A stretch of 64,000 nt of DNA from Patescibacteria group bacterium (GCA_028714455.1 JAQTMG010000003.1:39834-103833); one strand, 5' to 3'. Shown: positions 4,388 through 45,766, counted from the first letter of the stretch. The notes: a model not told the origin generated them from the letters alone. Numbers and translations are program-made.

Positions 4388-4498
4388 AATAAATCAAATT
4401 TATCATAAATCCCAGAATATTTCAACCCATAATCTTGACTGAATTTCTTAATAATGATAATGTCAAATCAGAACATTAAAAACAAAAAGGAGGAAAAA

Positions 4499-4867
4499 AT
4501 GAACGAAAGAAACGATTGGATAGTAAAGATACCTCACTTGTTAAAACCCGCGGCAATAATCGCTATCATTGGTGTAGTCGGGTTGGCTATTTTGGGAATG
4601 GTTCCAAGGCCCCCCTATTCTCATGCGAGCCAGATTGCTCCGAAACCATCATTTGAAATTTCAGTACTCGTTCCTGACCGGGTGATTTTAATCAAGGCGC
4701 ATCAACAGATGCTAAGCACCCGTATCGTAGATACCACAGACAATTTGAGTCTTGGAATCAAGGAAATTTCCAAGAAGTACGACATCAAAAACATTGCGGC
4801 AATTAACCAATATATTGATAACGGCTCGGTGACGGGTTCATTGCTGGTCATTGTTGAGCCAAAGTAA
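4499..4867 (+). CDS. Hypothetical small membrane-anchored/secreted protein
   Basis: AGGAGG RBS 8 nt upstream of ATG 4499 and one TM segment (AAIIAIIGVVGLAILG). The ORF track shows a longer form from 4454. Confidence 0.4.
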   Translation: MNERNDWIVKIPHLLKPAAIIAIIGVVGLAILGMVPRPPYSHASQIAPKPSFEISVLVPDRVILIKAHQQMLSTRIVDTTDNLSLGIKEISKKYDIKNIAAINQYIDNGSVTGSLLVIVEPK

Positions 4868-5029: not shown

Positions 5030-5104
5030 CGCGGGGTAGAGCAGTGGCAGCTCGCCGGGCCCATAACCCGGAGGTCGCGGGTTCAAATCCCGCCCCCGCA
5101 ACCA
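5030..5104 (+). tRNA. Initiator tRNA-fMet (anticodon CAT)
   Basis: Cloverleaf with a C1:A72 mismatch, three G-C pairs in the anticodon stem, loop CCCATAA, T-arm GCGGG-TTCAAAT-CCCGC and an encoded CCA. It is near-identical in architecture to E. coli tRNA-fMet. Confidence 0.85.
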
Positions 5105-5327: not shown

Positions 5328-5400
5328 GATCCGGTAGCTCAGTTGGTAGAGCACCTGCCTTTTAAGCAGGGGGTCCTGGGTTCAATCCCCAGCCGGATCA
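5328..5400 (+). tRNA. tRNA-Lys (anticodon TTT)
   Basis: GATCCGG acceptor, GCTC/GAGC D-stem, anticodon loop CTTTTAA, T-arm CTGGG-TTCAATC-CCCAG; no CCA encoded. Confidence 0.9.
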
Positions 5401-44030: not shown

Positions 44031-45256
44031 TTAATATTTCCCAATATTTTTTACGTAAGTTCCTGCTTCGCCCGAATAACGAATCAAAAAAACGTCATAA
44101 AGAACCGCGTCTACCTCTTGCCACAAATTCTCGGCCGTTTCTCTAATAATGAAACACTGCATGCCGCTTAGCTTAAGATACAACGGCCAAATTTTTGTCT
44201 CAAAATCATCCTTTTGTTCAAGCGCTTTTTTTAGGTTAAAAATGGTCAGGCGCAAACGCAACTTAAACTTCCGAGTATTGCGCACCTGGCCATCAACCAC
44301 ATTCAGTCCTAACGTGTGCAGAATATGCCCTCGTCTGGCAAAATATGATTTATGCAAATAGTAGCGCTGATAATAGGCTCCTTTATTTTGCCACCAACCA
44401 TCTGGGTCAGGCGCCTCTTTCAGTTCATAACCCCTTTTAGCGATACGAAAAACCGCTGAAATAACGGGCGCATGCCACACAATGCAACCGCGATATTTCT
44501 CAATATCTTCCTGACCCGCTGGTTTCACAAAGTAATCGTCAGCGGAGGGATCATCTGGCCGTTCTTCGCCGCGCTCAATGTGTCTTTTTTTTGTTTCCGG
44601 CCAAAATTCTGGCGCTGTGATAAAAATGTTGTCCGCGTAACGTACGTAAGTACCCCTGATGTTCTTGGCTAGCTCGGAAAGCTCGTAATCAAAGGGTTCA
44701 AAACAAAAATCAAACAAGCGCGGGCTGGTTGGCGCGCCTTGTGGCAAACCAAAAGCCGGTAGCCCCTTTTTCTTTTGATTAAACCAGGTCGTCAAACAGG
44801 TCAAATAATAAGAGGCGTAATAACCGTACTTTTTTGACTTGAAAAAATTGAAGACCGCGCGACCGCTTGTCGAAGGAAAAGCATCCTTCACGTCAGTCGT
44901 AAAAACCGCCTGGTCTGCCTTAGCAATAGCCAATGCCGCCTCTTTGACTCCACCGCCAGAAAATCCATAGACATTTCTATGACGGTCCAGCGGCTCAAGA
45001 ATATTTTTGTTGACAGCCCGCTGAATTGTCATCAAATCAGGGTGCGGAATCTGTAAAATTCTTCTGCCGCCGCTTCTTTTAGCAATTGTAATGGTTGAAT
45101 AAAGCCATGGACTCCTGACAATTGCCGCCCACAAAATTCTACGGAATTTTTCGAAATCATTAAAAGGATAATTCAGTTCAGCGAACAAATACCAGGCTGC
45201 TTTTCTGCCTGATTCCCTTAATAAGGGATTTTTAATGCGCTCACGCGATTTCAACA
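44031..45256 (-). CDS. Stand-alone reverse transcriptase (retron/DRT-like; motif C = YADN)
   Basis: RT motifs in order: 1/2 RRILQIPHPDLMTIQRAV, A FTTDVKDAF, B' GLPQGAPTSPRLFD, C YVRYADNIF. The proposed start is TTG 45256, 8 nt after AGGAGG; the ORF track's ATG 45383 would add 42 aa lacking an RBS. GC content is elevated. No maturase, endonuclease or other fused domain was recognised. Confidence 0.75.
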
Positions 45257-45294
45257 ATATTATCACCTCCTTTCCATGTTTTTTGTTTTCAAAG

Positions 45295-45695
45295 AAAAGG
45301 GAGGGGTAAATTCCCCTCCCACCGCTGGTTACTCGCGAATCGCAAGCTGTGCGTGTACCGATCAAGAACCGGGTGATTTGCATATTGCCGTCAGAATTCT
45401 GACAGCCCCTTTCGGCTATTTTAGGATCTCTTAGGGTTCCGGCAATAAAGCTAACTGTCTTGATCTAATTTCGGATTTTAGGGTTAGGGAGGGGTGCAAG
45501 ATTTATACATTTACTTCAAGTTTTGGTTATCCCCTCTCCTTCTAATTAAACCGAATTACCGAGCCAGTTACCTTCGCCGAAAATTATCTAGAGAAGGATA
45601 CGCAGTTTATGTACCTAACTCAAGTTTCGGCTAATCCTTCTCTTTATCCTATTTGGCCTCAAAGCTCGCTAACCAGCGAATGATAATACTTTAGT
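45295..45695 (-). ncRNA. Candidate RT-associated structured ncRNA (about 380 nt) directly upstream of and co-oriented with the RT
   Basis: Minus-strand promoter-like TTGACT-17 nt-TAAAGT at 45716-45688. Two paralogous long hairpins have conserved loops (AAACTTGA..GTA.ATAAA) and different, individually complementary stems (GAGAAGGAT/ATCCTTCTC versus GGAGAGGGG/CCCCTCC). There is a 14-bp palindrome GTCAGAATTCTGAC. The 3' end is a GC-rich hairpin GGGAGGGG-AATTTA-CCCCTCCC followed by TTTTCTTTG just before the RT RBS. Confidence 0.4.
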
Positions 45696-45766
45696 TAAAA
45701 TTTATTAAAAAGTCAAGAAAAAAAGAACCTACATTTACGGGGCTCTTTTAATTTATTTTAACCTAT

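Follow-up and report, generated by a model that had tools for sequence, protein, structure and literature searches.

The 64,000-nucleotide (nt) stretch of DNA analysed here, in the following called the window, belongs to a Patescibacteria group bacterium (GCA_028714455.1, JAQTMG010000003.1:39834-103833) and carries on its minus strand a reverse transcriptase (RT) gene that is preceded by the gene of a structured RNA. The RT gene (44031-45270) comprises a Shine-Dalgarno (SD) sequence GGAGGUG at 45270-45264, a TTG start codon at 45257 and a stop at 44031; it codes for 408 amino acids (aa) with the catalytic box YADN and is represented in the database by an identical 408-aa protein (P0001). The predicted RNA runs on the same strand from 45681 to about 45291 (approximately 390 nt) and contains two hairpin modules, M1 (45590-45643) and M2 (45486-45540), which a first-pass annotation had described as paralogous elements with a common loop motif and compensatory substitutions in their stems. 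We consider it probable that M1 and M2 are accessory stem-loops in the msr part of a retron-type RNA encoded upstream of an RT of the retron clade.

A consensus scan places a sigma-70-like promoter directly ahead of the RNA gene (45688-45716, minus strand), with a -35 box TTGACT (45716-45711), a 17-nt spacer and a -10 box TAAAGT (45693-45688), and predicts transcription to start at about 45681; the arrangement TTGAC(T/A)...TAAA(G/T)T precedes the RNA in most related loci. The upstream neighbour is a gene for a FecR-domain protein (47158-45767), directly followed by a probable terminator of the upstream operon (45715-45747; hairpin AGAGCC...GGUUCU, then UUUUUUU) that adjoins the -35 box. At the other end, between the RNA gene and the RT gene, a terminator scan detected an intrinsic terminator (45291-45320, minus strand) that consists of the hairpin GGGAGGGG-AAUUUA-CCCCUCCC (45320-45299) and the tract UUUUCUUU and ends 34 nt ahead of the RT start codon. 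With the probable terminator behind the FecR-domain gene, transcription of the RNA gene should be separated from both neighbours. In every related locus (L161-L174, L001, L081-L084) RNA gene and RT are divided by a G+C-rich hairpin with a subsequent tract UUCUUU(U/G)AAAA. This element resembles an intrinsic terminator with a conserved C in its U-tract; the element could set the ratio of RNA to RT or serve another role.

In every related locus the RT is preceded by 370-770 nt without other genes, where the RNA gene is contiguous with the RT and on its strand. The only open reading frames (ORFs) that overlap the M1/M2 region of the window have 22-46 codons, so that translation of the region was rejected and the first-pass description of a non-coding, structured RNA on the RT strand holds. 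The unconstrained minimum free energy (MFE) fold of the 390-nt transcript has -129.3 kcal/mol (z-score -4.65; 0 of 100 shuffled sequences folded as well) and recovers all elements that are described below, namely the closing stem a2/a1, the P2 arm, M1, P2b with M2, P3 and the terminator. The RNA had no match in Rfam: at the gathering threshold the whole window yielded two tRNAs only (5030-5101 and 5328-5400), and a search of 45250-45760 up to an E-value of 10 gave a best E-value of 1.4 and nothing relevant.

The RNA architecture with its conservation and covariation, the location of the modules and their confinement to one sub-lineage, and the conservation of the module loops were computed directly. 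For the core this was done on 17 loci, namely the window, another 11 independent loci from the close family and five distant members (L001 and L081-L084, with RTs 27-33% identical to that of the window). All 17 follow one plan: promoter, a2, a G, a stem-closed P2 domain, P3, a variable stretch of 44-58 nt, a1, the G+C-rich hairpin with its tract, SD sequence and RT gene. The arms a2 (45670-45678, minus strand, CGCUGGUUA) and a1 (45323-45331, minus strand, UAACCAGCG) pair with each other, both as an inverted repeat and in the unconstrained MFE fold. Over the 17 loci, 93.5% of the 153 cells of this 9-bp stem are paired compared to 58.7% in shuffled controls (0 of 500 reach the real value) and 33-48% in slid registers, pairing statistics that are somewhat inflated by the placement of the arms by eye, from their complementarity, in eight loci. 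Independently of complementarity, the location of the arms is fixed by the promoter just ahead of a2 and the terminator just behind a1. The sequence of a2 and a1 differs in nearly all loci and eight of the nine pairs have changed on both sides (covariation score 0.993 vs 0.302); past pair 9-10 the pairing collapses.

Immediately 3′ of a2 stands a G (45669, minus strand) that is present in 16 of the 17 loci and is, as a sequence feature, the candidate for the branching (priming) residue; the base 5′ of a1 is a G in 15 of 17 loci. In retron Ec86 the branching G immediately follows a2 and the template lies immediately 5′ of a1. This is the arrangement found in the window RNA, which we read as retron-type, and the context UUAGCGAG at G45669 is also that of the branching G of Ec86. 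Retron RNAs are defined by hybridising terminal inverted repeats and by a conserved branching G in the msr that acts as primer (PMC8632793; PMC7736814).

The hairpin P3 (45387-45406, minus strand; GCUGUCAG-AAUU-CUGACGGC, as a whole GCUGUCAGAAUUCUGACGGC) is near-invariant: it is found exactly or almost exactly in 17 of 17 loci, including those whose RTs share just 28-33% identity with that of the window, and changes noted by eye keep the pairing (U.G to C-G in L001, U-A to C-G in L173). By analogy to retrons, P3 is likely the stem-loop of the msr that the RT recognises. Between P3 and a1 lies the candidate template (msd-like) region (45332-45386, minus strand); it is variable in sequence, with a near-constant length of 44-58 nt in all 17 loci, and forms only short, non-conserved hairpins of -1.9 to -18 kcal/mol. 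The 56-nt cDNA predicted from it in the window folds at -5.9 kcal/mol.

Sequence profiles and predicted fold place the RT in the retron clade of prokaryotic RTs. It matches Pfam RVT_1 (6e-12), and its 25 best RT matches in PADLOC are all models of retron RTs, with RT_III-A on top (8.8e-34). A profile of 15 family members searched against the sequences of the PDB returned the Ec86 RT first (3.6e-24), followed by Kva2, Ec67, Ec83 and Ec78, with Drt2 and group II RTs at about 1e-6 to 1e-8. The AlphaFold2 model of the protein (predicted local distance difference test score 83.7) has retron RTs as its top 16 Foldseek matches, all over the full length and, for the single-domain retron RTs, with target-length normalised TM-scores of 0.63-0.72. 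The NCBIfam model retron_St85_RT is matched with 112 bits, which is below its cutoff of 235.

The catalytic box, in the window encoded at 44620-44631, reads (Y/F)ADN in 17 of 17 family RTs. Of 62 second-tier protein clusters with a readable motif (see below), 44 have xDN; beyond that tier ADD dominates. It would appear that the second aspartate is missing from an entire clade of retron RTs. Two loci of Pseudomonadota that turned up through their YADN RTs, L063 and L106, are complete type III-A retrons with PRTase_III-A, WH_III-A and RT_III-A (in L063 at 7e-76, 1.5e-17 and 4.8e-121, respectively), and thus YADN is present also there.

Between the putative branching G and P3 the window carries a greatly enlarged non-templated (msr) arm, P2 (45408-45664, minus strand). 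According to MFE folds its conserved lower stem is formed by CUUU/AAGG, GGC/GCC and UAGGAU/AUCCUA and opens into a three-way junction; one branch carries M1, the other a long imperfect stem, P2b (45437-45582, minus strand; fold of 45416-45596 with a z-score of -2.45), that is tipped by M2. All 17 loci have a stem-closed P2 domain at this position; between the G and P3 lie 27 to 264 nt, depending on the locus. The simplest family members have two msr hairpins, P2 and P3, whereas the window has P3 and a branched P2 of 257 nt with M1, P2b and M2. The predicted msr of the window would follow the plan of described retrons, which have one to three short msr hairpins, but is far larger.

M1 (minus strand) has a 10-bp stem (45643-45634 / 45599-45590; AGAGAAGGAU/AUCCUUCUCU) and a 34-nt loop with CCGAAACUUGA...GUACAUAAA; M2 (minus strand) has a 9-bp stem with one bulged A (45540-45531 / 45494-45486; AGG(A)GAGGGG/CCCCUCCCU) and a 36-nt loop with CCAAAACUUGA...UGUAUAAA. 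Folded alone, they reach -15.8 kcal/mol (z-score -3.0; 1 of 200 shuffles as good) and -14.1 kcal/mol (z-score -1.9; 10 of 200), respectively. The loops have the motif AAACUUGA...UA..(U/G)(A/G)(C/U)AUAAA in common, and the modules are identical at 34 of 54 positions (63%), with transitions accounting for 16 of the 20 differences. Their local alignment score of 22 compares to 12.3 ± 2.2 in shuffled sequences, of which 7 of 2000 reach it. As judged from their sequences M1 and M2 are paralogues, in agreement with the first-pass annotation. The same annotation had described the stems as completely different, a view that we have to revise: a structure-guided alignment of the 5′ arms (AAGAGAAGGAU in M1, AGGAGAGGGGA in M2) and the 3′ arms (AUCCUUCUCU and ACCCCU-CCCU) reveals recognisably homologous arms in which the majority of pairs are the same. 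Three pairs differ, each being A-U in M1 and G-C in M2, and one A that is part of a pair in M1 is bulged out in M2. A third copy was found neither in the 64-kb window nor, apart from the two modules of L162, in 181 kb of related loci, and a repeated or mobile element was rejected on these grounds.

The only other locus with both modules, in the same arrangement, is L162 of Candidatus Falkowbacteria, the RT of which is 67.9% identical to that of the window; its equivalent of P2b has another sequence (GGUUUGGCUGG/CCAGCUAAGCC) and is fully paired. The modules are absent from the remaining 15 of the 17 loci that share RT family and RNA core, and a covariance model of the module found only the four copies of window and L162 in the 181 kb. 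In the four modules 3 of 11 stem pairs have changed on both sides (covariation score 0.242 vs 0.108 in shuffled controls, reached by 3 of 500), a statistic that leans towards structure as the alignment was fitted to the structure by hand; a MAFFT alignment had set one stem off by a base and hidden the pairing. In the real register 85% of the stem cells are paired vs 47-67% in slid controls. The compensatory substitutions proposed in the first pass are thus real, if modest and from a very small sample.

The copies of both loci carry copy-specific bases, a G specific for M1 (CCGAAACUUG) and an A specific for M2 (CCAAAACUUG), and pair 2 of the stem is A-U in the M1 copies and G-C in the M2 copies. 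As these differences are common to window and L162, the duplication occurred once and before the two lineages split. A third locus, L161, has a P2 of 146 nt that is differently built and unduplicated. According to the RT identities (67.9% between window and L162, 64.5% and 63.7% for the comparisons with L161) the window and L162 are sister lineages relative to L161, which at 64.5% branches off earlier. M1 and M2 are a lineage-specific, duplicated decoration on the side arm of a retron-type non-coding RNA in bacteria of the candidate phyla radiation (CPR).

Comparison of window and L162 by segment gives 88% identity for the P3 core, 71-74% for the module loops without large indels, 32-52% for the spacers with 21-23 gapped positions, and 34% for the template stretch. 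The difference between loops and spacers makes the loops look selected for their sequence and not for shape alone. An inner hairpin that presents GAAAC(U/C)U was found by a strict search in 4 of 12 loci with a large P2 (0.8 expected; 1 of 300 shuffles reaches this number); the modules of the window satisfy the search only when a bulge is tolerated, and the inner helix that RNAalifold suggests is another one, of 4 bp. In L162 the M1-loop sequence UUGGAUUA (about 4680-4687) is fully complementary over 8 bp to UAAUCCAA of the M2 loop (about 4753-4760), which would permit a loop-loop contact; the window retains only 4 bp of this complementarity. Viral contigs contained no match to the P3 motif, and four matches to the degenerate loop motif without flanking stems were taken as chance.

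By analogy to retrons, we infer a mechanism in which a retron-type msr-msd RNA of about 390 nt is transcribed from its own promoter as far as a probably leaky intrinsic terminator that is followed by the RT gene. The RT would bind to P3, the 2′-OH of G45669 beside a2 would serve as primer, and a stretch of about 55 nt beside a1 would be copied into a short, branched multicopy single-stranded DNA (msDNA). M1 and M2 would stay outside of this reaction centre and cap the two branches of the non-templated P2, which comprises 27-35 nt in the simplest family members and appears to have grown to 264 nt here. Since the modules occur only in the window and in L162, they are best understood as accessory elements on the non-templated side. 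They arose when a single hairpin was duplicated in an ancestor shared by the window genome and the L162 lineage, and selection seems since to have kept the stems, by compensatory A-U/G-C changes, and above all the sequence of the loops. Given that stems and loops were apparently both kept, docking sites or assembly of a ribonucleoprotein are the most likely kind of function. We therefore put forward, as a tentative proposal to which we give somewhat less than an even chance, that the modules offer two copies of one loop, on which a protein (the RT or an unlinked partner) would dock or which would help to assemble the particle. The protein-recognition element suggested in the first pass fits in this respect to the conserved loops amid diverged spacers, but a partner of the loops was not found.

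Several findings weigh against this overall picture. Neither a sequence nor a protein that could be a conserved partner of the loops was found, and a search for stretches complementary to the loops in the RNA and the RT leader yielded none that is conserved in both window and L162. All evidence on the modules comes from four sequences in two independent loci and, in the case of the covariation, from the hand-fitted alignment; the pairing values of a2/a1 are affected by the manual placement mentioned above. The RT of all family members has YADN in place of YxDD, the box that is mutated in retron studies to kill activity (YSDD in Retron-Eco11, PMC12746101). A long, stable stem-loop was not found in the P3-to-a1 stretch of any of the 17 loci, and such a stem-loop is listed as typical of the msd (Mestre et al. 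2020, PMC7736814). Finally, no conserved effector accompanies the RT: the neighbouring genes vary between loci, PADLOC matched none of its models to 13 neighbouring proteins, and a phosphoribosyltransferase (PRTase) or winged-helix effector is present neither in the window nor in related loci. The usual retron logic, in which RT and msDNA hold a toxin, is thus left without a visible partner.

The modules could also be the outcome of neutral expansion. P2 would then be a permissive site that gains and loses length in the manner of an rRNA expansion segment, and M1/M2 a functionless duplication by slippage whose hairpin form was kept only since misfolded insertions would disturb the core. The wide range of the G-to-P3 distance, the differently built P2 of the closest outgroup L161, the presence of the modules in 2 of 17 loci and the failure to find a loop partner would all be expected in this case. 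Against it stand loops that remained 71-74% identical without large indels next to spacers of 32-52% with many gaps, as well as copy-specific bases conserved in both lineages, and matches to the loop motif in the P2 arms of L166 (AAACUUGAG) and L164 (UACAUAAG) add weak evidence against it. We regard neutral expansion as rather unlikely.

Another alternative concerns the protein: the YADN enzyme could be an altered RNA binder with the fold of an RT that makes no DNA and acts as scaffold of a ribonucleoprotein, the hairpins being part of a larger RNA machine. An invariant YADN in 17 RTs that dominates also in the wider clade, the missing effector, the lack of a long msd stem-loop and the retron_St85_RT score below cutoff are in line with such a function. 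On the other hand, without priming it would be difficult to account for an a2/a1 stem that ends exactly at a conserved G and for a template side whose length stays constant, and the complete type III-A retron L063 has YADN, too. Polymerases with ADN or GDN in motif C, such as birnavirus VP1 and the mononegavirus L protein, are active. A non-DNA-making protein appears clearly unlikely.

A role of M2 as riboregulator is very unlikely in our view. In this model the C-rich 3′ arm of M2 (ACCCCUCCCU) would pair with the 5′ arm of the terminator (GGGAGGGG) as an anti-terminator and set the read-through into the RT gene. It is based on an exact 10-nt repeat between the 3′ arm of M2 (45486-45495) and that of the terminator (45298-45307), on the occurrence of CCCUCCC at both places in L162 and on a weak match of the module covariance model to the L162 terminator (15.5 bits, E-value 0.24). 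The 5′ arm of M2 itself is, however, only 36 nt away compared to about 170 nt for the terminator, other loci retain the terminator without such a C-rich arm, and a repeated 10-mer in 531 nt of stems rich in G and C runs could arise by chance (rough expectation 0.1 or more). The identity of the two 3′ arms may as such reflect common origin, alternative pairing or chance.

The first-pass annotation had also considered the modules as template or primer units for the RT. The RT would then copy one or both hairpins or read through P3 into P2, and the modules would become part of the cDNA, for instance as repeats for template jumping as in DRT2. Two copies with common sequence 104 nt apart and the coincidence of a stretch beside a1 without long stem-loop with a long stem-loop of the msd kind in P2b and M2 speak for it. 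The topology of retrons, though, sets the template directly 5′ of a1, and the modules are 155-310 nt off and behind the near-invariant P3, elsewhere than the putative priming G45669 and template (45386-45332) beyond P3. Being absent from 15 of 17 loci that retain a2, G, P3 and a1, they cannot be essential for priming or templating; the RT, moreover, is far closer to retron RTs than to Drt2. We consider this function highly improbable. A diversity-generating retroelement (DGR) was rejected, as the differences between M1 and M2 are mostly transitions and not adenine-specific, both copies are intergenic and a DGR RT appears only at fold rank 35.

Among known systems, type III-A retrons (PMC7736814) are similar in that RT_III-A is the best PADLOC model for the window RT. 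In the type III-A retron L063 the RNA likewise lies upstream on the RT strand, a2 and a1 pair to close it and a G directly follows a2; its msr contains a hairpin that resembles P3 in its AAUU loop, and its RT reads YADN. L106 shows the a2-G...a1 layout and an AAUU-looped msr hairpin as well. There are also differences. Retron-Eco11, of type III-A3, has YSDD (PMC12746101). L063 has the PRTase and winged-helix effector proteins that are missing in the window and its relatives, and it matches the RT_III-A model over the full length with 402 bits, whereas the window RT matches partially (residues 84-258, 115 bits), is about 60-90 aa longer than the RTs of this type and has an insertion after YADN and a C-terminal part of its own. 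The template side of L063 comprises about 120 nt with a long hairpin, as compared to about 50 nt without a long stem in the window family, which in addition differs from type III-A retrons by a terminator between RNA and RT and by a large, variable msr arm.

Retron-Eco1 (Ec86), the structural reference for retron ribonucleoproteins, whose RT is the closest solved one by sequence profile and also among the top fold matches, has the same order of a2, branching G, msr hairpins, template and a1. Its msr consists of two short hairpins and its 86-nt msd contains a long stem; the catalytic box is YADD and the effector a nucleoside deoxyribosyltransferase (NDT), while the window has an msr side of 264 nt with duplicated hairpins, YADN and no effector. 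Orphan retrons (Retron-Eco5/Ec107 branch, clade 11; Mestre et al. 2020) likewise consist of RT and non-coding RNA without a specific neighbouring effector, and effectors in trans or another function have been left open for them (PMC7736814). They differ by an unlike RNA core, by their hosts, as the named members of the present family all come from Patescibacteria, and by a weaker PADLOC match of the window RT to RT_Ec107-like (1.1e-19) than to RT_III-A. In DRT2 (UG2) systems, too, a single RT gene stands behind a structured non-coding RNA of a few hundred nt without an effector gene. Their RT is distant, however (28.1 bits to NCBIfam Drt2 at a cutoff of 390, 1.7e-6 for Drt2 in the PDB search, fold rank 43), and the window RNA has the closing stem of retrons and a candidate for the priming G.

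A word-based protein search found about 16 close homologues of the RT with 35-100% identity, and all of those with a taxon name belong to Patescibacteria (Falkowbacteria, Buchananbacteria and Saccharibacteria). An exhaustive profile search of 1.84 billion representative sequences returned only eight full-length clusters (E-value 1e-121 or better), then a gap and a second tier at 1e-65 to 1e-30. Scans of genome and metagenome contigs with the generic retron peptide LPQGAPTSP delivered mainly ordinary retron RTs; only L001, L081-L084 and L063/L106 were useful here. In the literature that was searched, a description of retrons in Patescibacteria/CPR or of YADN RTs was not found; about 80% of CPR RTs are RTs of DGRs (review, PMC8632793).

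The surroundings of the related loci revealed some further features. An ORF of 145-146 codons without family match follows the RT gene in L161 (3052-3489) and L162 (6296-6736) and is absent from the window; a gene for a TrmB-like helix-turn-helix protein follows it in L164 (6292-7071) and L166 (6291-6929) and is likewise not family-wide. A tRNA gene is located 200-250 nt upstream of the RNA gene in L164 (tRNA-Gly, 4397-4471) and in L084 (tRNA-Gln, 583-657), and the 3′ end of the tRNA is partially repeated behind it; in L166 the same tRNA-Gly gene (1884-1959) is separated from the retron by two inserted genes. Integration hot spots typically look like this. Several more distant loci (L164, 2454-2813; L165, 1746-2105; L169, 1070-1423; and the P0015 contig) carry genes of the 23S_rRNA_IVP family, which code for four-helix-bundle proteins related to the DGR accessory protein Avd; these genes lie 2-4.5 kb from the RT, are not adjacent to it and may just be frequent in these genomes.

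Retrons have been studied as anti-phage systems and as tools for genome editing, almost wholly in Proteobacteria and a few other cultivated groups. M1 and M2 are a small and clean case of a paralogous RNA element that is kept by selection, and the P2 arm, with its range of 27-264 nt, marks a site on the non-templated side at which a retron RNA naturally tolerates insertions, which is of relevance to engineering. The more interesting result is nonetheless to be found outside the two modules and is the locus itself, which appears to be a rare, Patescibacteria-associated retron variant in which the catalytic box is altered and an effector is not visible. Such a compact unit of the retron type in reduced genomes raises the questions of what purpose orphan retrons have and whether an RT can do without the second aspartate of YxDD. 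A YADN RT without a linked effector, an RNA gene that a terminator insulates from the RT, a short template with few hairpins and an msr arm capable of roughly tenfold expansion could together point to an undescribed, rare retron lineage, seemingly restricted to Patescibacteria, in which M1 and M2 are docking sites for a partner encoded elsewhere or for oligomers of the RT. We think this possible, with more doubt than confidence. If true, these bacteria with their tiny genomes would possess a retron that acts together with a trans-acting partner, or one that serves a purpose other than toxin-based defence.

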